Program-made: the position numbers and the translations under genes
DNA from: a virus
Length of the DNA stretch: 64,000 nucleotides
Direction: 5' to 3' (one strand)
IMG/VR virus record: IMGVR_UViG_3300038468_000223
Coordinates: 41,512-105,511 of that record
Notes under the pieces: model-generated
The model's input: only the letters and a program-made list of their open reading frames with translations
What the model was told of the DNA's origin: nothing
The model's database searches: none
In this document: one piece after another, positions 39,973 through 61,257 of the stretch
How the letters are laid out: the number at the start of each line of letters is the position of its first letter
How positions within the stretch are numbered: position 1 is the first letter of the stretch

Positions 39973-42014
39973 AGCCCAAGAGCTACGTCGATGCGATGCG
40001 GAAGTTCCGGGGCGTGAGCAAACACGCCGCGGAGGGTCATCGCCGCCTCGTCGGATTGGCAGAGGGATCGACCTCAAATCCGCTGCGGGTTCCGGCCTCG
40101 TACGATCGTCAAGAGGAACTTCAACGATATTTGACCGAGAACTACGAAAGCTGTATCGTCCAGAAAACTGGTGGTGAGAGTGCTGCCGGTGCGCGCGACA
40201 AGACTCACTGCGCTAGGGTCGCGTGGAAGAGGGCTGAAGAGAGCGGGCGGTTTTCGGACTATCCAGCGTTCCACGGAGGAAGCAGGAACATGTCACGTCG
40301 CAACCTGAAGCCGCGCGCGCGGCGCCACGATCGGTGGGGTCGCTTCGCCGAGGTGATGGAGAGCAAGGCGCAGCGCAAGGCCGCCCGCAAGAAGTCGGAC
40401 AAGGCCGCGCACAAGGCCAAGAAGACGAGCAAGAAGGCCGCTGCCAAGCGCTCCGCGATGCAGGTCAAGGCCTCGAAGACCGCGGCGCAGGCGGAGAAGT
40501 CGTCGGCGATCTCGCGCGGCAAGGCGGAGGCGGCCAAGAAGGCTGCCGCCACCAAGGCGGAGAAGCACGCCAAGCGCGTGGCCGCCGGCAAGAAGGCGGC
40601 CGCCGCCAAGGCGGAGAAGCACGCCAAGCGCGTGGCCGCCGCCAAGAAGGCCGCGGAGACGCGCAAGAAGAACGAAGCCGCGGCTGCCAAGCCGGCGGCG
40701 AAGAACGAAGCCGCGGCTGCCAAGCCGGCGGCGAAAAAGAAGCCGAAGAAGACGGCCGCCAAGAAGCAGGCGAAGAAGGTCAAGAAGGAGAACAAGGCCA
40801 TGGCGCTGACCAACAGGCAGAAGGCGGCTCGGAAGGCCGCGAGGACGCGCGAGAAGAACCGGAAGGCCGAGGAGGAGCGCAAGGCGGCGGCCGCGCGCAA
40901 GCGTGCGCGCAAGGCCAAGGGCGGCGCCAAGAAGAGCAAGGGCACCAAGAAGAGCAAGGGCAAGAAGGGCGGCGCCAAGAAGACCGCCAAGAAGTCGAAG
41001 GGCAAGAAGGGCAAGCGCAAGGCCACCGTCGCCACCGTCCCCGGCACGCGCCGCGTGAAGGTCGGCGGGCACTCGCGCCAGGTCCCGAGCAACATCCGCA
41101 TCACCATCGGCGCCCCGGTGCACGCCCGCAAGGCGGCCAAGCGTCCGGCCAAGCGCAAGGGCGCGCGCGAGGACCTCGTGCTCGAGTCGATGTCGAACCC
41201 GATCTCCGAGGAGTACGCGCTCGAGAACCCGATGACGGGCGGCGAGATGTTCCTCGCGGCGGTCACGGGCGGCCTCGGCATCCTCGCCGCGAGCGGCCTC
41301 GATCGCTACCTCGCGACGCGCGACCAGACGCCGGCGCAGGGCCAGCCCGCGCTGACCCCGGCCGAGCAGGTCGCGTCGCCGCCGGGCATCCTGCGCGTCC
41401 TCGCCCAGGGCGGCATCGCGGCGGCGGCGTTCGTCGGCGCGTACTTCGTCCCGCAACCGATGGGCCGCGCGGCGCTGCAGGGCGCCGGCCTCGGCGCGTT
41501 CTCGCACCTCGTCGGGCAGGCCTTCATGACCTACCTCGTGCCGCGGTTCTTCAAGTCCAACGACACCGCGCGCAAGATGTTCCCCGCCGAGATCGCGGTC
41601 TACGAGCGCCTCAACCCGCCGCAGGCCACGACCACCGGGCAGCAGGGCCTGCCGATGGGCGTCGGCGGGTACCTGCCGCGCCACGGCATGGGCGTCGACC
41701 CCGCCGCCGCCATGATCGTGCGGCCGCAGAACCTCGACTACATGGGTCCGGCGCTGACGCGCAACCCGGTCGCGCCCCCGGCGCCGGCCGCGAACGGCGG
41801 CGGCGGATGTGGCCCGTGCGGCGGGTGCGGGGACCGCATCGAGCAGGGCGTCCCCAACGCGATCGAGAACGTCGCCAACGCCGCCAACGCGCCTGCCTCC
41901 ACGTCCGAGACCCTCTCGAGCGTGATGAGCGCGACGCGCGACGCGGTCTGCAACCCCGGCCTCGCCGGCACGAGCCGCTGGTACAACGCCGTCACCTTCG
42001 CGCCGGAGCACTGA
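39969..42014 (+). CDS. Lys/Ala-rich histone-H1-like putative core protein with ChaB-like N-terminus and membrane C-terminus (possible internal start 40290)
   Basis: About 270 aa of K/A repeats (AEKHAKRVAA x2, KNEAAAAKPAA x2); SNP..ENP followed by hydrophobic helices. Confidence 0.75.
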   Translation: MKPKSYVDAMRKFRGVSKHAAEGHRRLVGLAEGSTSNPLRVPASYDRQEELQRYLTENYESCIVQKTGGESAAGARDKTHCARVAWKRAEESGRFSDYPAFHGGSRNMSRRNLKPRARRHDRWGRFAEVMESKAQRKAARKKSDKAAHKAKKTSKKAAAKRSAMQVKASKTAAQAEKSSAISRGKAEAAKKAAATKAEKHAKRVAAGKKAAAAKAEKHAKRVAAAKKAAETRKKNEAAAAKPAAKNEAAAAKPAAKKKPKKTAAKKQAKKVKKENKAMALTNRQKAARKAARTREKNRKAEEERKAAAARKRARKAKGGAKKSKGTKKSKGKKGGAKKTAKKSKGKKGKRKATVATVPGTRRVKVGGHSRQVPSNIRITIGAPVHARKAAKRPAKRKGAREDLVLESMSNPISEEYALENPMTGGEMFLAAVTGGLGILAASGLDRYLATRDQTPAQGQPALTPAEQVASPPGILRVLAQGGIAAAAFVGAYFVPQPMGRAALQGAGLGAFSHLVGQAFMTYLVPRFFKSNDTARKMFPAEIAVYERLNPPQATTTGQQGLPMGVGGYLPRHGMGVDPAAAMIVRPQNLDYMGPALTRNPVAPPAPAANGGGGCGPCGGCGDRIEQGVPNAIENVANAANAPASTSETLSSVMSATRDAVCNPGLAGTSRWYNAVTFAPEH

Positions 42015-43413: not shown

Positions 43414-43499
43414 TCGAACCGCTCCGCGCTCGTTGAGAGGGTGCCGGCGGCCCGAGAGGGGGCACCGGCACCCTTTCTTCTAGAGGGAAAGGAAAGGCC

Positions 43500-55721: not shown

Positions 55722-56267
55722 ATGACCTGGACCAAGCTCACCCCCGAGGCGCCCATCTCGACGTTCGAGGGACCGATGTACCCGCTCGTGATGGGGCGCA
55801 CCTACCGTGGCACACTCACGCTTCCCGAGTTCAGGAGCGGGGTGCCGCAAACCTACGAGCCGTACCTGATCTCGGCCCTGACGGCGGCCTTCGCCGCGTA
55901 CGGCAACCCGACGCTCTGGCAGGCCGATCAGCAGCCCAAGGACTGGCCGGCGGAAGACGACGTGCCGACGACGGCGTCCGTCATCCGGTTCCAGCTCGTG
56001 ACGTTCCGAGATGGGGTCTTGCGAGGGCGCCTCCCGATCCCGCTCCCCAACACGCAGCCGGCACGGATCAACTACCTCTGGCGCCTCGACGAGACGACGC
56101 CCGTGACGCCGGCGCCGACTGCGCCCGCGACGCCGACCACGCCGCCAGCGACGCCGGTGAAGGGCTCGGGCGGGTGGGGCGCACTCTTCGCGCTCGCCGC
56201 GGTCGTCGCCGGGACCGGGGCGGTGGTGATGTACGTTCGATCTCAGCGACGTCTTCGACCCGCGTGA
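55722..56267 (+). CDS. C-terminally TM-anchored putative virion protein
   Basis: GRTYRGTLTLP/PKDWP, P/T linker, TM. Confidence 0.65.
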   Translation: MTWTKLTPEAPISTFEGPMYPLVMGRTYRGTLTLPEFRSGVPQTYEPYLISALTAAFAAYGNPTLWQADQQPKDWPAEDDVPTTASVIRFQLVTFRDGVLRGRLPIPLPNTQPARINYLWRLDETTPVTPAPTAPATPTTPPATPVKGSGGWGALFALAAVVAGTGAVVMYVRSQRRLRPA

Positions 56268-56281
56268 TGTCAGGTTCCGCC

Positions 56282-56309
56282 TTGACAGTCGTCGAATAAG
56301 GCATAGGGT
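56282..56309 (+). promoter_or_regulatory. Sigma70-type promoter of the tRNA array
   Basis: TTGACA-16 nt-TAGGGT. Confidence 0.8.
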
Positions 56310-56316
56310 CAACACG

Positions 56317-56412
56317 ATGGCACTGAGCTGGCGCTCCCACAAACAGACCTCGTTGCTTCCAGCGACGACGTCGACGTATGCCGGCCAGGATTTCAACCCG
56401 GAGACCGGATAG
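56317..56412 (+). CDS. Leaderless 31-aa leader peptide MALSWRSHKQTSLLPATTSTYAGQDFNPETG
   Basis: ATG 7 nt after the -10 box; stop overlaps antiterminator strand. Confidence 0.65.
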   Translation: MALSWRSHKQTSLLPATTSTYAGQDFNPETG

Positions 56413-56475
56413 GGAGCGGCAGAGCGCCCACGCGAGGCCGCTCCCGGGAGACCGAGAGCGGCCTTCGACGTTTCT
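56412..56475 (+). terminator. Attenuator (alternative antiterminator/terminator hairpins)
   Basis: GGGAGCGGC (56412-20) pairs with GCCGCTCCC (56437-45), which alternatively forms AGGCCGCTC..GAGCGGCCT (56435-64); weak U tract. Confidence 0.65.
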
Positions 56476-56555
56476 GGAGCGTGACCAGGGCATGGAGCCC
56501 AAGCCGGCTGTAACCCGGTGGCCGATGGCGAGTGGTTCGAATCCACCACGCTCCA
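56476..56555 (+). tRNA. tRNA-Tyr(GTA)
   Basis: Loop CTGTAAC, long variable arm, TTCGAAT. Confidence 0.85.
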
Positions 56556-56621
56556 CGAGGAAAGAACGATGGGACTCAAACGCAAGCTCGTGCCGGCGAG
56601 GGCCGGCATGCAGACCAAGGA

Positions 56622-56694
56622 GGACTCCTAGCTCAATCGGCAGAGCAACCGGCTTTTACCCGGGAGGTTGCGGGATCGTTGCCCGCGGGGTCCA
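56622..56694 (+). tRNA. tRNA-Lys(TTT)
   Basis: Loop CTTTTAC; atypical T loop. Confidence 0.8.
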
Positions 56695-56701
56695 CGCAGA
56701 T

Positions 56702-56774
56702 GGATCCGTGGCGCAGTTGGTAGCGCAGCCGGCTCTTACCCGGAAGGTTGAGGGTTCGACCCCCTCCGGATCCA
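56702..56774 (+). tRNA. tRNA-Lys(CTT)
   Basis: Loop CTCTTAC. Confidence 0.9.
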
Positions 56775-56778
56775 CTAT

Positions 56779-56852
56779 TCCGGCCTCGTTCAATGGCAGG
56801 ACGGCAGCTTCTGAAGCTGCTCATCGGGGTTCGATTCCCCGGGCCGGGACCA
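56779..56852 (+). tRNA. tRNA-Gln(CTG)
   Basis: Loop TTCTGAA, CCA encoded. Confidence 0.9.
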
Positions 56853-56950
56853 AGCACTTCGTTCGTTGACAACCTGACGGGACCTGGCGCGGCGTCGCGC
56901 CTCTCTCGAGATCCATCAGGCGCGCCGCCGTCGTGGCGGCGCGCGTTCGT

Positions 56951-57022
56951 TCCGGGGTAGCACAATGGTCGTGCGTGCGTCTGTTCAACGCGAAGATGGG
57001 GGTTCGATTCCCTCCTCCGGAG
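56951..57022 (+). tRNA. tRNA-Asn(GTT)
   Basis: TCCGGGG acceptor, G73; loop CTGTTCA. Confidence 0.85.
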
Positions 57023-57025
57023 CTT

Positions 57026-57097
57026 GGTGACGAAGCTCAATGGCCGAGCAAGGGCCTGTTAGACCCGAGGAAGAAGGTCCGATTCCTTCCGTCACCG
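57026..57097 (+). tRNA. tRNA with GTT anticodon (Asn-like, atypical)
   Basis: Acceptor GGTGACG/CGTCACC, loop CTGTTAG, weak anticodon stem. Confidence 0.6.
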
Positions 57098-57102
57098 CTC
57101 TC

Positions 57103-57171
57103 GCCGACGACCCCATGGCGGGACCTCGCCTCGTAAGCGGGACCGATCGCGTTCGATTCGCGACGTCGGCT
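57103..57171 (+). tRNA. tRNA-Thr(CGT)
   Basis: Loop CTCGTAA. Confidence 0.8.
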
Positions 57172-57181
57172 CTCAGTAAAT

Positions 57182-57254
57182 GTCCTCGTCTTCTAGTGGT
57201 CCAGGACGCTAGGTTTTCACCCTGGCAACGCGGGTTCGATTCCCGCCGAGGACA
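57182..57254 (+). tRNA. tRNA-Glu(TTC)
   Basis: Loop TTTTCAC. Confidence 0.85.
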
Positions 57255-57262
57255 CTCATCAT

Positions 57263-57335
57263 GCCCCCATCGACTTCTGGTGAGGTCGTCGGCCTCTCAA
57301 GCCGACCAGGCTCGGTTCGATTCCGACTGGGGGTA
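57263..57335 (+). tRNA. tRNA-Glu(CTC)
   Basis: Loop CTCTCAA. Confidence 0.85.
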
Positions 57336-57347
57336 CTGTCAGTAAAC

Positions 57348-57422
57348 GCATGGAGAGCAAGTCTGGTGATTGCGGTTGGCTGAAAACCGACAGAACTCGG
57401 TTCGATCCCGAGTCCATGCACC
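57348..57422 (+). tRNA. tRNA-Phe(GAA)
   Basis: Loop CTGAAAA. Confidence 0.85.
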
Positions 57423-57483
57423 GTCTGGATCGAGACGCTTGCGACTCGTGCAACTCTTTCGAGAGTTGCTCTAGACGATCCTA

Positions 57484-57559
57484 CGGGGTGTAGCCCAGTG
57501 GAAAGGCGCCTGCTTCGGGAGCAGGAGATGCGCGAGTTCGATTCTCGCCGCCCCGACCA
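57484..57559 (+). tRNA. tRNA-Pro(CGG)
   Basis: Loop TTCGGGA, CCA. Confidence 0.9.
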
Positions 57560-57563
57560 AAAA

Positions 57564-57635
57564 CAGCGTGTAGCGCAACGGTAGCGCGCTTCGTTGGGGA
57601 CGAAGAGGCAGCGGGTTCGATTCCCGCCACGCTGA
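57564..57635 (+). tRNA. tRNA-Pro(GGG)
   Basis: Loop TTGGGGA. Confidence 0.9.
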
Positions 57636-57727
57636 CTGACGTGTTCGGCCGAGGAGATCCTACACGCTGGCGCAAGCCATCCTCTTTGGAATGAGACCTC
57701 GCGGTCTCCTCACTCGAACGCGTTTCT

Positions 57728-57803
57728 CGGGGAGTAGCACAGATGGAAGTGCACGAGCTTTGGGTGCTCGTCGTCGCGGGTTCGAATCCCGTCTCCCCGA
57801 CCA
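57728..57803 (+). tRNA. tRNA-Pro(TGG)
   Basis: Loop TTTGGGT, CCA. Confidence 0.9.
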
Positions 57804-57875
57804 GGCGTGGTGCGCCAATCCGGATCGGCCTACTCGGACGCGAGTAGGTTGGTGGCGCACCATGCCTCCGTACAT

Positions 57876-57945
57876 GGTGAACGAAGGTATCTGGTGATGC
57901 CGGCAGGTCGTGACCTTAGGCGGGTTCGATCCCCGTCGTTCACCC
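57876..57945 (+). tRNA. tRNA-His(GTG), short or degenerate variable region
   Basis: G-1:C73, loop TCGTGAC. Confidence 0.65.
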
Positions 57946-58056
57946 TGGGTAGCTGCGAACCCGATGAGAGACCGAACGCCGAAGTTGCCTGATCAGCCCT
58001 TCGCTCGGGGCGACCCTCGGTTGCGACCTCGCAAGTAGCAGCGCCCTCCCCTCTTC

Positions 58057-58132
58057 CTCCGGGTCCGGGTGGACTGTTCCCGGCTCGCGTCTCCTAAGCG
58101 CGCTGCGAAGGGTTCGATTCCCTTCCCGGAGA
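58057..58132 (+). tRNA. tRNA-Arg(CCT)
   Basis: Loop CTCCTAA. Confidence 0.8.
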
Positions 58133-58140
58133 CTTCAACT

Positions 58141-58215
58141 GCCTCGTGATGCGACCGGTGTCGCAGTTCCGCTGTCTACGGAGTGAGACGGGTTCGATTC
58201 CCGTACGAGGCGCCA
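58141..58215 (+). tRNA. tRNA-Asp(GTC)
   Basis: Loop CTGTCTA, G73-CCA. Confidence 0.85.
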
Positions 58216-58216
58216 C

Positions 58217-58284
58217 AGGTCCGCGCACTGGGTGCAACACGGTTTCCAAGTCCGTGGAAGAGGGTTCGAATCCTTCCGGATCTG
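58217..58284 (+). tRNA. tRNA-Trp(CCA)
   Basis: AGG acceptor, G73, loop TTCCAAG, minimal D arm. Confidence 0.7.
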
Positions 58285-58285
58285 C

Positions 58286-58359
58286 GGGGGCGTCGTCCAA
58301 CGGGAGGACTGCTGCCTTGCAAGCAGCAAATGCCAGTTCGATTCTGGCCGTCTCCACCA
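58286..58359 (+). tRNA. tRNA-Ala(TGC)
   Basis: G3:U70, loop CTTGCAA, CCA. Confidence 0.9.
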
Positions 58360-58362
58360 TCT

Positions 58363-58436
58363 GCCGGCTTCTTCTGGCGAGGCGTCGTCCTTGGTATGGA
58401 CGCACGAGGCGAATTCAACTCTCGCAGCCGGCTCCA
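58363..58436 (+). tRNA. tRNA-Thr(GGT)
   Basis: Loop TTGGTAT, CCA. Confidence 0.75.
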
Positions 58437-58438
58437 GT

Positions 58439-58510
58439 GCCAGTTTTGTCTTGGAGACGAGGCGGTTTTGTACCTCGTCTGAGCGCGTTCGACTCGCGCA
58501 CTTGGCTCCA
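58439..58510 (+). tRNA. tRNA-Thr(TGT)
   Basis: Loop TTTGTAC, CCA. Confidence 0.7.
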
Positions 58511-58511
58511 C

Positions 58512-58584
58512 GCGAGCATGGTGTATTGGTGCATGCAGGTCTTCAAACCTTGCGGTGCCCGTTCGAATCGGGTTGCTCGCTCCA
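58512..58584 (+). tRNA. Gly-type tRNA body with TCA anticodon (possible opal suppressor)
   Basis: GCG acceptor, U73-CCA, loop CTTCAAA. Confidence 0.65.
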
Positions 58585-58608
58585 GAGTTCGATATTATCG
58601 TTCGCTCC

Positions 58609-59097
58609 ATGGGCTACGATGACAAAGAAAAACAACGTGCATATCAGTTGGCCTGGCTGCAAAGACGCCGTCTGAAGTGGCTAGAACAAAACGGCCCGTG
58701 CACTGTGTGCGGTTCGACAAAGGATCTTGAAGTAGATCACATCAACCCCAATACGAAGGTCGATCATAAGGTATGGGGCTGGTCCGAGAAACGACGTTCA
58801 AAGGAGTTGGCTAAATGCCAAGTTCTTTGTGCCGAATGCCACCAGAAAAAGACGTCGGCCCATGCACGTAGTCTGGTGCGACACGGGACATCTACTATGT
58901 ACGACAGAATCGGTTGTAGATGCTTCAAATGTCGAGCGTACAAATCGGCGGTGAACAAACGACGATACGAGCCCGAACCATCCGGTGATGGGCGCGGTCT
59001 GCAAAACCGCGAGCGATCGGTTCGACACCGATCGGGCTCTCCAGCTCGAGGTCTTCTTGAGCAACTGCGGAGGACGTCCGCCGGGAAGGCTGCGTAA
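58609..59097 (+). CDS. HNH endonuclease inside tRNA array
   Basis: CTVCG...LEVDHINP...KCQVLCAECH, HGT..MY...CRC..C; lower GC. Confidence 0.85.
   Translation: MGYDDKEKQRAYQLAWLQRRRLKWLEQNGPCTVCGSTKDLEVDHINPNTKVDHKVWGWSEKRRSKELAKCQVLCAECHQKKTSAHARSLVRHGTSTMYDRIGCRCFKCRAYKSAVNKRRYEPEPSGDGRGLQNRERSVRHRSGSPARGLLEQLRRTSAGKAA
58969..59043 (+). tRNA. tRNA-Cys(GCA)
   Basis: Loop CTGCAAA, U73-CCA. Confidence 0.85.
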
Positions 59098-59193
59098 CCC
59101 CGTTACTGCGTGCAGCGCCCAGCGTCTCGGGTGAGCGGAGACGCTGATCGAAGCAAGGCCGGGCTTCGGAAGGTTCGATCCCTTCCTCGATCA
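59044..59193 (+). ncRNA. tRNA-like RNA with large structured insertion
   Basis: T arm GAAGG-TTCGATC-CCTTC; acceptor-like pairing; internal hairpins. Confidence 0.5.
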
Positions 59194-59196
59194 TCT

Positions 59197-59264
59197 GCCC
59201 CCGCTAGTGGATGGGTGGCGGTCCTCTAAACCGCACAACGCAGGTTCGACTCCTGCCGGGGGCG
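59197..59264 (+). tRNA. tRNA-Arg(TCT)
   Basis: GCGGT-CCTCTAA-ACCGC. Confidence 0.7.
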
Positions 59265-59294
59265 CCGAGTTGACAGGAGGTCTGTCAGCTCACA

Positions 59295-59340
59295 GCGGGT
59301 GTCGAGAAGTTGACCGGCTGCTGGAGCCGTACCCGCACCA
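59295..59340 (+). pseudogene. tRNA remnant or minihelix (Gly-like acceptor, ACCA end)
   Basis: GCGGGTG/TACCCGC-ACCA with a single inner stem. Confidence 0.5.
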
Positions 59341-59346
59341 GCACTC

Positions 59347-59418
59347 TTCTCTGTCCGGGCGGACTCCCGGCGCGAGCCTCCGAAGCTCGCCGTTGCGGTT
59401 CGACTCCGCACAGAGAGA
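59347..59418 (+). tRNA. tRNA-Arg(CCG)
   Basis: Loop CTCCGAA. Confidence 0.8.
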
Positions 59419-59424
59419 CTTCTT

Positions 59425-59494
59425 CTCCCCACCAGCGGACCTGGCGCCGAGGCTACGAACCTTGGTTGCGGTGGTTCAACTCCATCTGGGGAGA
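59425..59494 (+). tRNA. tRNA-Arg(ACG)
   Basis: Loop CTACGAA. Confidence 0.8.
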
Positions 59495-59495
59495 C

Positions 59496-59569
59496 CGCGG
59501 GAAGGGTCGTCCTAGCTCCCAACGAAGGCTCATAACCTTCGCCAGGCCGGTGCAACACGGCTCCCGCAA
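59496..59569 (+). tRNA. tRNA-Met(CAT), initiator-like
   Basis: C1xA72 mismatch, loop CTCATAA. Confidence 0.7.
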
Positions 59570-59570
59570 C

Positions 59571-59628
59571 GCACGTGTGGCGAAAGGCATACGCAGACGG
59601 TCTCAAAAACCGTTGCCGAAAGGCGCTC
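59571..59628 (+). pseudogene. tRNA-Leu(CAA) lacking T arm and 3' acceptor strand
   Basis: 5' half with ACGGT-CTCAAAA-ACCGT and variable arm, then runs into tRNA-Val. Confidence 0.65.
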
Positions 59629-59700
59629 GCGCGGCTCGCCGTCTGGTGACGGCACCGGCGTGACACGCCGGCGAGGCGGGTTCGATCCCCGCGCTGCGCA
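59629..59700 (+). tRNA. tRNA-Val(GAC)
   Basis: Loop GTGACAC, A73. Confidence 0.8.
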
Positions 59701-59702
59701 CC

Positions 59703-59756
59703 GGGGGCTCGAAGACAGTAAGTCCTTTTCGGCATCCTCTTCGCGTCCCCCGACCA
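59703..59756 (+). pseudogene. tRNA-Ala(GGC)-like remnant
   Basis: GGGGGC...CGTCCCCC ends, TCGGCAT, no T arm. Confidence 0.4.
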
Positions 59757-59829
59757 CGAAGCGGTAAGGGCTGGTCGCCCTACGGCGTCTGATAAGCGCC
59801 GCGCTCAGGTTCGATTCCTGCCGCTTCGA
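59757..59829 (+). tRNA. tRNA-Ile(GAT), 8/4 acceptor/T-stem fold
   Basis: CGAAGCGG/CCGCTTCG, T stem CAGG/CCTG, loop CTGATAA. Confidence 0.75.
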
Positions 59830-59857
59830 CCCCATCCATGCTACGAAAGCGAAGACC

Positions 59858-60379
59858 ATGAACTGCCTCGTCCTCCTGCCGTGGATGGCCCCTCACCGCT
59901 CGATCGACTGGACCGAGGCGGTGACGCTCGTCTTCCTCGGCAAGGCGGACGTGCTCGAGGAGTACGAGGCGACCGTCAGCTCGCCGTCGACGACGATCCG
60001 ACTCCCCGCGGTCCTGCAACTGAAGAAGCACGTCGTCCGCAACAAGAAGGACGTGAAGTTCTCGCGCGCGAACGTCTACCAGCGCGACGACCACCGCTGC
60101 CAGTACTGTGGGACGCGCAAGCCGGTCTCGGGGCTCAACTACGACCACGTCCTGCCGCGCTCGCGCGGCGGCAAGACGACGTGGGAGAACATCGCCACCT
60201 CGTGCGTCGCGTGCAACCTGAAGAAGGACAACCGCACGCCGGAGGAGGCGGGGATGAGGCTCCTGCGCAAGCCGACCAAGCCCCGGTCCCTGCCGCTCGT
60301 GAGCGTCTTCGCGCTCCCGAAGCACGTGCCCGAGCAGTGGCTCCCGTACTTGAACGCGACCACGGAGGCTGTCGGATGA
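59858..60379 (+). CDS. HNH endonuclease (tRNA-array-associated type)
   Basis: FSRANVYQRD..RCQYCG, DHVLPRSRGG..TWEN...SC..CN.KK.NRTPEEAGM. Confidence 0.92.
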   Translation: MNCLVLLPWMAPHRSIDWTEAVTLVFLGKADVLEEYEATVSSPSTTIRLPAVLQLKKHVVRNKKDVKFSRANVYQRDDHRCQYCGTRKPVSGLNYDHVLPRSRGGKTTWENIATSCVACNLKKDNRTPEEAGMRLLRKPTKPRSLPLVSVFALPKHVPEQWLPYLNATTEAVG

Positions 60380-60561
60380 CGAAAATCCTGTCCCGAACGT
60401 CATTTCGCCTCTCGAAGTACGCCATCATCGGCGTCGACCCCTCCGTCGCCGCCCCCGACACCACCCACACGTGGACCCTCGTCGTTCTTGGCCGATCGCG
60501 AGAGGTCGCCGCGAGCAACGACCGCGAAGCGATCGAAGCCGCATGGCGCTTGATGAATGTC

Positions 60562-60643
60562 GGAGAGTGAACCGCGCGGGCGGACCTGCTTGGAACGCAG
60601 CGTGGCGCCGCAAGGCGCTCCGGATCGAGACCGGCTCTCTCCT
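60562..60643 (+). tRNA. tRNA-Ser(GGA), 8/4 type
   Basis: Long variable arm; T stem CCGG/CCGG, T loop ATCGAGA. Confidence 0.75.
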
Positions 60644-60655
60644 CTCGCTTGACTT

Positions 60656-60742
60656 GGAGGGTTGGCCGAGCGGCAAGGCTCCGGCGTTGAATACCGGTGA
60701 CGACGCGCGAGCGTCGCGGGGGTTCGATCCACCCACCCTCCT
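60656..60742 (+). tRNA. tRNA-Ser(TGA)
   Basis: Loop GTTGAAT, long variable arm. Confidence 0.8.
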
Positions 60743-60749
60743 CTCTCTT

Positions 60750-60835
60750 GGAAGACGAACCGGTCAGGCGACCGGACCTGTTTCGAAAACAGAGTGCGCC
60801 CGCAAGGGCGCGGGGATCGAGACCTCCGTCTTCCT
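60750..60835 (+). tRNA. tRNA-Ser(CGA), 8/4 type
   Basis: GGAAGACG/CGTCTTCC. Confidence 0.8.
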
Positions 60836-60840
60836 CCCGT

Positions 60841-60924
60841 GGAAGCTGAACTCGCGATGGAGCGAGGCCTCCCTGCTAAGGAGTGCGCGGGTAACACCGT
60901 GCGGATCGTGACCGCCAGCTTCCT
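60841..60924 (+). tRNA. tRNA-Ser(GCT), 8/4 type
   Basis: GGAAGCTG/CAGCTTCC. Confidence 0.8.
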
Positions 60925-60928
60925 CTAC

Positions 60929-61001
60929 GCCGGGGTAGTTCAGTCGGCAGAACGCGAGCCTTTGAAGCTCGATGTCGCCGGTTCGAGTCCGGCACCCGGT
61001 A
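60929..61001 (+). tRNA. tRNA with TTG anticodon (Gln by anticodon; body looks Phe/Thr-like)
   Basis: CGAGC-CTTTGAA-GCTCG, GCC start, A73. Confidence 0.75.
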
Positions 61002-61002
61002 C

Positions 61003-61257
61003 CTAGACGCGGCGCAGGTGGCTCGCGCGATGAGATCTCGGAGTGCGCGGCTTCTTGCGAGCCACAGCGTCCTTCTCCTCCTCGACGTACGCCGCCTTGT
61101 CGAGCACCGACGCGATGGTCGTGAGGCTGTCCCTGATCGTCTGGATCGACGGCCCGTCGTCCGGGATGCGCAGCCACTTGAGGAACTTCTTCGACATGTG
61201 GACGTCGAAGGTGTCCTCGGACGAGCTGGTGATGCTGAACAAGATCTCGTCGGCCAT
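61003..61257 (-). CDS. Hypothetical protein
   Basis: MADEILFSITS... real part of track ORF. Confidence 0.5.
   Translation of the reverse strand: MADEILFSITSSSEDTFDVHMSKKFLKWLRIPDDGPSIQTIRDSLTTIASVLDKAAYVEEEKDAVARKKPRTPRSHRASHLRRV

Follow-up and report, generated by a model that had tools for sequence, protein, structure and literature searches.

The stretch analysed here (the window) comprises 64,000 nucleotides (nt) of viral DNA, positions 41,512 to 105,511 of the IMG/VR record IMGVR_UViG_3300038468_000223, and contains an array of tRNA genes preceded by a short leader. We think it rather likely that this leader (56283-56475) is a ribosome-dependent transcription attenuator that gates the tRNA array and senses decoding in general rather than one particular amino acid; judged from its sequence, the phage probably makes the array tRNAs only when ribosomes run slowly. 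The leader holds the sequence elements and the two alternative folds of such a device, and the arrangement is conserved in a second phage, G006. On the model set out below, the open reading frame (ORF) of the leader would be translated, transcription would terminate at a hairpin just before the first tRNA, and the position of the ribosome would set the direction of the switch. The features of the leader and of the unit behind it are as follows.

56283-56288, + strand: TTGACA, a -35-like hexamer, 15 nt 3' of the stop codon of the upstream gene (G006 has TTGACGATTGACG at the equivalent boundary)
56305-56310, + strand: TAGGGT, a TANNNT -10-like hexamer or a Shine-Dalgarno-like AGGG, after a 16-nt spacer from TTGACA
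56317-56412, + strand: leader ORF, 31 sense codons and TAG (56410-56412), MALSWRSHKQTSLLPATTSTYAGQDFNPETG; 17 different amino acids, with C, I and V missing; it has a 38-codon counterpart in G006
56332-56338, + strand: segment 1, CGCUCCC inside the ORF, pairing with GGGAGCG of the antiterminator 5' arm in the minimum free energy fold of the full leader
56412-56445, + strand: antiterminator hairpin, GGGAGCGGC (56412-56420) paired with GCCGCUCCC (56437-56445), plus an inner GCG:CGC stem; -26.1 kcal/mol
56430-56471, + strand: terminator-like hairpin, core 56436-56463, GGCCGCUC/GAGCGGCC; -30.0 kcal/mol
56472-56475, + strand: remaining U tract, UUCU, between the terminator-like hairpin and tRNA-Tyr
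56476-56555, + strand: tRNA-Tyr(GUA), a class II tRNA whose D arm is unusual and the gene that opens the array; Rfam clan match of 34.4 bits (56475-56555), homologous to the tRNA-Tyr of G006
56622-61003, + strand: rest of the array, about 29 tRNA genes at a relaxed threshold and two HNH endonuclease genes; the unit that the leader would gate

Two mutually exclusive hairpins share one arm

The leader takes up all 208 nt from the last protein gene to tRNA-Tyr. It opens with the TTGACA-16-TAGGGT promoter-like pair that had been noted earlier from the letters of the DNA (the sequence-only reading) and that is present in the sequence; perfect TTGACN-N16-18-TANNNT pairs occur at three sites in 2 x 105 kb, the leader's included. 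The 31-codon ORF with 17 of the 20 amino acids, taken from the same reading, can be read off directly. Its stop codon is joined to the first hairpin, the G of the TAG (56412) being the first base of GGGAGCGGC, and the earlier claim that the TAG overlaps an arm able to sequester the 5' arm of the terminator is borne out by the folds (-26.1 and -30.0 kcal/mol). The antiterminator 3' arm GCCGCUCC doubles as the terminator 5' arm, where it pairs with GAGCGGCC; the two hairpins, sharing 56437-56445, are mutually exclusive. Pairing of segment 1 with the antiterminator 5' arm gives the leader a four-segment look resembling that of the trp leader, and segment 1 probably lies outside the conserved core because it has no clear counterpart in the G006 sequence.

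High GC content yields many hairpins and open frames, and GC-rich intergenic DNA might in principle carry such pairings and such a frame fortuitously. We hold this to be highly improbable: the fold of the leader has a z score of -3.94, with 0 of 200 shuffles folding as well, and that of the G006 leader has a z score of -4.11; two overlapping sub-windows of this stability are found in 13 of 35,150 genome windows of 65 nt (9 loci; top 0.04%); and the geometry is conserved in a phage whose capsid protein is 47% identical.

In both phages the gap from the terminator to the first tRNA is too short for a promoter, so expression of the array must pass through the hairpin. The terminator-like hairpin ends 4 nt before the first tRNA because this first tRNA is tRNA-Tyr at 56476, a gene that ARAGORN overlooks here but calls in its G006 homologue. 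Inspection by hand finds a 7-bp acceptor stem, a GTGG/CCAC T arm and a long variable arm, and the acceptor, T and variable arms are also seen in the fold. The tRNA-Lys at 56622 had been a candidate for the first gene of the array and was ruled out by tRNA-Tyr (56476-56555).

The arrangement is kept in a second phage

The leader of G006 lies at positions 1320-1554 of locus L145. The gene upstream of it, which ends in TTGACGATTGACG, is unrelated to the upstream gene of the window, and in both phages the upstream gene is co-directional with the array. TAAGGGT stands 9 nt before the ATG (AAGGG 10 nt upstream) of a 38-codon ORF that ends in TAG, and from its sequence this motif is more readily taken for a Shine-Dalgarno-like element (AAGGG) than for a -10 element. 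The G of the TAG is again the first paired base of an antiterminator, GGGC-A-GCUUCGCG ... CGCGAGGC-C-GCCC (-26.2 kcal/mol), whose 3' arm (CGCGAGGCCGC...; shared arm CGCGAGGCCGCCC) is the 5' arm of a mutually exclusive terminator, GAGGCCGCC ... GGCGGC (-21.8 kcal/mol). The terminator, with UUUUUUCAUUUC (a U6 tract) after its stem, ends 5-10 nt before tRNA-Tyr and has the sequence of a textbook intrinsic terminator. The classical attenuation geometry recognised in the sequence-only reading is thus found a second time, despite the unrelated upstream gene and an ORF body that cannot be aligned. The order of the array is common to both phages (Tyr, Lys UUU, Lys CUU, Gln, Asn, Thr CGU, Glu, Phe, Pro...), and the array tRNA sequences have diverged so far that T loops are the only exact shared words.

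Segment-wise global alignment of the window with G006, scored against composition-matched shuffles, gave the following z scores.

TAG-to-tRNA segment: 5.6
tRNA-Tyr: 3.6
ORF body: 2.5
Tyr-Lys spacer: 1.7
Upstream spacer: 0.6

The score of 5.6 for the TAG-to-tRNA segment against 2.5 for the ORF body places the conservation on the switch, not on the peptide. A switch region that is the best conserved part, beside an almost unalignable ORF body, would also suit a conditional terminator set by a factor other than the ribosome (an RNA-binding antiterminator protein, a small RNA (sRNA) or tRNA on the 5' arm, a ligand or temperature), with the ORF incidental. Frame openness alone is cheap, 39% of shuffles for the window and 35% for G006 being open and another frame also lacking a stop, and the start signals differ between the two phages. 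We nevertheless regard such a factor as unlikely. It leaves unexplained the stop codon fused to the first stem base in both phages, the ATG frame ending there in both (composition-matched shuffles produce an ATG frame of 25 or more codons up to that TAG in 3.2% of cases for the window and 6.1% for G006), and the match of the G006 leader to 19 amino acids described below. No Rfam family, T-box included, matches either leader (no T-box at E ≤ 1), the G006 leader scoring 22 bits for RcsR1 against a cut-off of 60, with no sRNA match in the window's leader; a UGGN-type bulge for a tRNA 3' end is absent from both antiterminators.

Folding with a ribosome predicts a position-dependent switch

We modelled translating ribosomes as a 27-nt footprint (P site -12 to +14) forced to be unpaired at each codon in turn. 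For the whole G006 leader at equilibrium, the probability of the terminator is 0.02 without a ribosome and at most 0.10 with a ribosome at codons 1-34; the terminator wins with a ribosome at codons 37-39 (0.76, 0.83 and 0.97). For the window, in nascent RNA ending before the terminator 3' arm, the probability of the antiterminator is about 1 for ribosomes at codons 2-28, and falls only when the A site is at codons 30-32. In both leaders, therefore, the models predict that a ribosome at the stop would permit termination and that one lagging earlier would give read-through, which reproduces the direction put forward in the sequence-only reading. A strong G006 terminator that is always masked would, on these models, make sense only if something uncovers it, and the stop codon of the ORF sits exactly there.

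The mechanism that we propose runs as follows. Transcription would start at the TTGACA/TAGGGT promoter or would read through into the leader from the upstream gene, which has the same direction, and the 31-codon leader ORF would be translated as RNA polymerase advances. A ribosome keeping pace to the last codons and the TAG would cover GGGAGCGGC with its footprint (about 56395-56421); GCCGCUCCC, thus freed, would pair with GAGCGGCC to form the terminator 4 nt before tRNA-Tyr, and transcription would stop. If the ribosome lagged or stalled earlier, through slow decoding, scarce charged tRNA or too few ribosomes, the antiterminator (56412-56445) would form first and lock the shared arm, and the polymerase would continue into the array.

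The same position could be occupied by an ordinary leaky intrinsic terminator, or by a stabilising hairpin of the upstream late unit, the tRNAs then being made by partial read-through or from an internal promoter such as one near TTGACAACCTG. The upstream genes are co-directional in both phages, a hairpin with a similar tail follows the capsid gene, GC-rich hairpins abut several array tRNAs, and TTGACAACCTG is conserved inside both arrays. However, the leader travels with the array though the upstream genes are unrelated, and masking of the G006 terminator at equilibrium would be pointless for a plain terminator. As for the internal promoter, TTGACAACCTG has no TANNNT at 16-19 nt, and initiation there would leave the Tyr, Lys, Lys and Gln tRNAs promoterless. 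A plain leaky terminator is, in our estimation, distinctly unlikely.

The leader ORFs sample most amino acids

The attenuator that we favour would differ in its input from an amino-acid-specific one. A run of codons for a single amino acid is absent from the leader ORF of the window; its most frequent residue is Thr (5), with ACG ACG TCG ACG at codons 17-20, and this cluster has no conserved counterpart in G006. The diversity of the two leader peptides was compared with that of random and real sequences.

Window leader: 17 amino acids in 31 residues; p 0.07 against same-composition random ORFs; p 0.064 against real protein windows; 2% of small genomic ATG-ORFs (n = 105)
G006 leader: 19 amino acids in 38 residues; p 0.006 against same-composition random ORFs; p 0.010 against real protein windows; none of the small ATG-ORFs (n = 105)

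The + strand array of G006 serves 19 amino acids, all but Leu, and its three Leu tRNAs lie on the - strand. The same 19 amino acids, neither more nor fewer, make up the G006 leader, which contains no Leu; random ORFs of the same composition reach this combination (at least 19 amino acids without Leu) with p = 6.5e-5. Since the ORF includes most amino acids and has no one-codon run, it would report on the speed of decoding in general, and the general sensing of tRNA depletion suggested in the sequence-only reading fits both the diversity of the two ORFs and the G006 match. A fuller version of this idea, which we advance tentatively and would not yet bet on, is that the leader acts as a generalist gauge of decoding speed: any shortage of charged tRNA would switch on the whole array, and restored decoding would shut it off. 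Such shortage could come from mismatched codon usage, from host shut-off or from cleavage of host tRNAs by anticodon nucleases, the link to these nucleases being speculation.

Start signals of the leader and of other phage genes

A genome-wide scan for a -35 hexamer with at least 4 of 6 matches, a spacer of 16-19 nt, TANNNT and an ATG or GTG 5-8 nt further on returned four sites, two of which are the first starts of real genes with high GC content at the third codon position (GC3). Without the -35 requirement, ten real genes have TANNNT, exactly 6 nt and then the first ATG of the frame. These genes lie at 602, 8379, 54448, 62373 and 63598 of the window and at 1701, 22350, 32350, 36559 and 36844 of the genome, and TGn often precedes their TANNNT hexamer. 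By sequence they form a clear class of leaderless, extended -10 transcription units, and on account of these ten genes the host evidently initiates on leaderless mRNAs. Mycobacteria (PMC4633059) and Deinococcus (PMC4007540) are well-established cases of leaderless initiation. The motif before the starts of the two leaders is conserved and may act either as a -10 element or as a Shine-Dalgarno sequence.

GC content at the three codon positions of the leader ORF is 0.48, 0.58 and 0.77, the third position being the highest in both leader frames (0.77 here and 0.76 in G006). With its promoter-like site, ATG, ORF and terminator the locus would be complete as a minimal unit, and it could be read as an independent small gene, encoding a peptide of 31-38 residues or a small RNA, that merely adjoins the array. 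The C-termini of the two leader peptides are faintly alike (F..NP..T.*). The peptides are otherwise unrelated, however, codon usage is poor, and neither leader has an Rfam sRNA match above noise; a small gene also leaves the mutually exclusive hairpins and the missing tRNA promoter behind the terminator unexplained. We find it very unlikely.

Observations that weigh against attenuation

Several observations count against the proposed attenuator. The full-length leader of the window favours the terminator at equilibrium for every ribosome position, and the switch must therefore be kinetic. We do not take the equilibrium result as a refutation, since attenuators act kinetically. Passing by the direct path from the antiterminator to the terminator means crossing a barrier of 9.8 kcal/mol, which by a rough Arrhenius estimate suggests a delay of seconds, exceeding the polymerase clearance time; in this model the antiterminator could hold while the polymerase passes.

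The tail of the window's hairpin is a second difficulty. The U tract had been called weak in the sequence-only reading, rightly: UUCGACGUUUCU follows the core stem and just UUCU the extended stem, so that the proximal U tract is UUC or UUCU. Part of the ancestral tract is now paired as a stem extension, the window having UUCGAC where G006 has UUUUUU, and UUCGAC pairing with ACGCGA to lengthen the stem. A consensus terminator scan did not call the window's hairpin. With the U tract degraded in this way, termination may be inefficient or lost in the window, and the element may be a weakened version of that in G006. Moreover, a layout of hairpin, UUUCU and tRNA recurs before tRNA-Pro(UGG), so such hairpins need not terminate.

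The codon usage of the ORF is not gene-like, although its score is intermediate: compared with real in-frame windows it falls at the 5th percentile, and compared with out-of-frame ones at the 89th. Of its 31 codons, 8 are rare. With respect to the array, the exact match of leader and tRNAs in G006 comes from one sequence. In the window, the leader has Leu (three times), His, Gly (twice) and Asp, none of them served by the array, and is without Cys, Val and Ile, whose tRNAs the array does have; 23 of 30 leader residues are covered by the array, about the average for a protein. By synteny the array of the window looks remodelled, the signs being two HNH insertions, extra Pro, Ser and Thr genes, a UCA tRNA with a Gly body, and low-scoring remnants where G006 has His and Trp. 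We conjecture that the mismatch between leader and array may be secondary.

The start signals fit imperfectly. The sequence-only reading had placed the ATG at about +1. The ATG is there, at 56317, and the exact +1 is uncertain, 7 nt (CAACACG) separating it from TAGGGT compared with 6 nt in all ten clear leaderless genes; because of this spacing the leader ORF fits the leaderless class only approximately. If the start site is placed at base seven, by analogy with the ten genes, the transcript would begin G-AUG; alternatively, AGGG could be a weak Shine-Dalgarno sequence on transcripts arriving from upstream. The start in G006 looks Shine-Dalgarno-led and is without a convincing -10.

Comparison with other array leaders had been proposed as a check by covariation: the geometry is kept in G006, and covariation is limited to one double-sided base-pair loss, a U:A pair of the terminator stem missing from both arms, with no real covariation statistic. 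There are two independent leaders only, a third metagenome copy being identical to that of G006.

Comparison with known systems

Classical leader-peptide attenuators precede the enterobacterial amino-acid operons (trpL, hisL, leuL, thrL and ilvL). T-box riboswitches are likewise antiterminator/terminator leaders, which sense tRNA status and regulate synthetase and amino-acid genes, not tRNAs. The phage leader resembles the trp/his type in its short ORF, its mutually exclusive hairpins with a shared arm, and a ribosome at the ORF end that would cover the antiterminator 5' arm. It differs in lacking a run of codons for one amino acid, the defining feature of the trp/his class, in controlling tRNAs instead of biosynthetic enzymes, and in being viral; in addition, its segment-1 anti-antiterminator is not conserved, its start is possibly leaderless and its U tract is weak in the window. 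Unlike a T-box, neither leader has an Rfam T-box match, a Stem I, a specifier or a T-box sequence.

Among attenuators described in the literature, pheL is a transcription attenuator of the leader-peptide kind (PMC3082878), the bmrB leader of the B. subtilis bmrCD operon senses general inhibition of translation (PMC4191407), and the leaders of ARE-ABCF genes such as msrD are ribosome-mediated attenuators (bioRxiv 10.1101/2021.11.29.470318). As in bmrCD and msrD, the phage leader has an upstream ORF without amino-acid specificity, a slowed ribosome is predicted to favour the read-through fold, and the output would aid recovery of translation. The bmrCD and msrD leaders respond to antibiotics and control cellular transporters or ABCF factors, whereas slow decoding would here release a set of tRNAs. 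By analogy, the logic of the phage leader seems closer to the general stall sensing of bmrCD and msrD than to the codon-run sensing of trp and his.

In mycobacteria, polycysteine leaderless short ORFs act on translation of the next gene (bioRxiv 10.1101/834739). The phage leader shares with them a possibly leaderless short ORF that would serve as a ribosome-based sensor at the head of an operon, and a high GC content; it differs in having no Cys and no downstream ribosome-binding site, and its predicted output is transcription termination. A physiological parallel is the trn operon of Anabaena sp. PCC 7120, with about 26 tRNA genes that are kept low and induced under translational stress (PMC8421152), the repressor TrcR binding direct repeats over the -10 element and transcription start site (PMC10272220). 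As proposed here, the phage array would share the logic of being on when translation is impaired, but the control differs, being exerted by a DNA-binding repressor in Anabaena; the report on the Anabaena array (PMC8421152) makes no mention of an attenuator, leader peptide or terminator.

In the literature we found leader-peptide attenuation for protein-coding genes only (amino-acid biosynthesis and antibiotic resistance) and none for tRNA genes. If our reading is true, the phage would offer the first documented example of tRNA genes under leader-peptide attenuation, with the speed of decoding feeding back directly on the supply of tRNAs. This would account for the way in which accessory tRNAs stay cheap until they are required, and it would provide a homeostatic counter-measure to tRNA-targeting defence, with a testable link to such anti-phage systems. 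Two natural versions are at hand, G006 with a canonical terminator and an array-matching leader, and the window with a degraded U tract and a non-mirroring leader.

The phage genome and its relatives

The window is the final 64 kb of a 105,511-bp record from a wetland metagenome, which has 127-bp direct terminal repeats and 67% GC. A capsid search, with 97 relatives of the capsid protein found, places the phage by sequence in a lineage of large tailless jelly-roll phages. An alignment of 30 capsid relatives led to 36 IMG/VR loci, and 32 of those records (G001-G032) were searched for tRNAs. Twenty-seven of the 32 have no detectable tRNA gene, and one, G006 (117 kb), has a large, syntenic tRNA array; four others (G005, G010, G011 and G025) have small tRNA clusters, none with a leader of this kind. 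The array and its leader look like an accessory module gained within the lineage.

The best capsid relative, P0007 (72% identical), is encoded on a Logan contig of 75.6 kb, where a leader homologue closer than that of G006 is most likely to be present; the leader comparison made here covers two independent sequences, the window and G006. A metagenome scan found two contigs that are identical copies of G006 and nothing beyond G006 copies. Pattern scans of IMG/VR gave 107 matches for the hairpin arms, all unrelated GC hairpins, 0 matches for the 3' half of tRNA-Tyr, and 35 matches for CGCGAGGCCGC...CACGAGGA, of which G006 is the sole real one; the combined pattern had 7 matches in GTDB genomes, all chance. 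The capsid protein had no tblastn match among cultured phages. Genes lie on the + strand as far as the upstream gene (55722-56267), which encodes a 181-residue protein with a C-terminal membrane anchor and is an ORFan, its sole database match being itself; searches with this protein or with the C1 peptidase found no relatives of the locus, the peptidase having just two homologues, both on contigs of about 1 kb. Two DNA runs showed no variation across the leader.

Other features of the array and its surroundings

A hairpin with the tail UUUCUUCU (window 43425-43480) directly follows the capsid gene and precedes the next Shine-Dalgarno sequence and ATG; it probably acts as a leaky terminator and raises the level of capsid mRNA, and serves as an example of the terminators of this phage. 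Inside the array, a long hairpin ending in ...ACGCGUUUCU (window 57638-57727) adjoins tRNA-Pro(UGG). The open frame of the first HNH gene (window 58609-59097) continues through tRNA-Cys (58969-59043) to its first stop.

At a 90% threshold, ARAGORN reports eight more tRNAs in apparent spacers: Asn, Ala CGC, Thr GGU, Thr UGU, Arg ACG, Ser GGA, Ser CGA and Ser GCU (window 57026-57098, 58141-58215, 58363-58510, 59423-59496, 60562-60644 and 60750-60925). The pattern CCAGCGGACCTGGCG-N42-GGGAGACCGCGGG, an exact match with G006, is an Arg(ACG)-like tRNA. Some array spacers taken as free of tRNAs may thus be low-scoring tRNAs, to judge from their sequence. In the spacer between tRNA-Gln and tRNA-Asn, TTGACAACCTG (window 56866-56876; L145 1934-1944) is kept in both arrays while the remaining spacer differs; a search 16-19 nt downstream of it found no TANNNT, and the motif could be an internal promoter half-site or a protein-binding site.

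The spacer between tRNA-Tyr and tRNA-Lys holds a second conserved mini-ORF (window 56557-56631; L145 1634-1689). It has a strong Shine-Dalgarno sequence (GAGGA here, GAGGAGAGGAGG in G006), an ATG 5-7 nt further on and a short frame that is rich in Lys and Arg and contains rare AAA codons (MGLKRKLVPARAGMQTKEDS in the window, MKRTGPKESEGR in G006), and it enters tRNA-Lys(UUU), stopping at the UAG of its D arm. This mini-ORF might tie folding or processing of tRNA-Lys to the decoding of Lys codons, or the purine-rich block might have another role.

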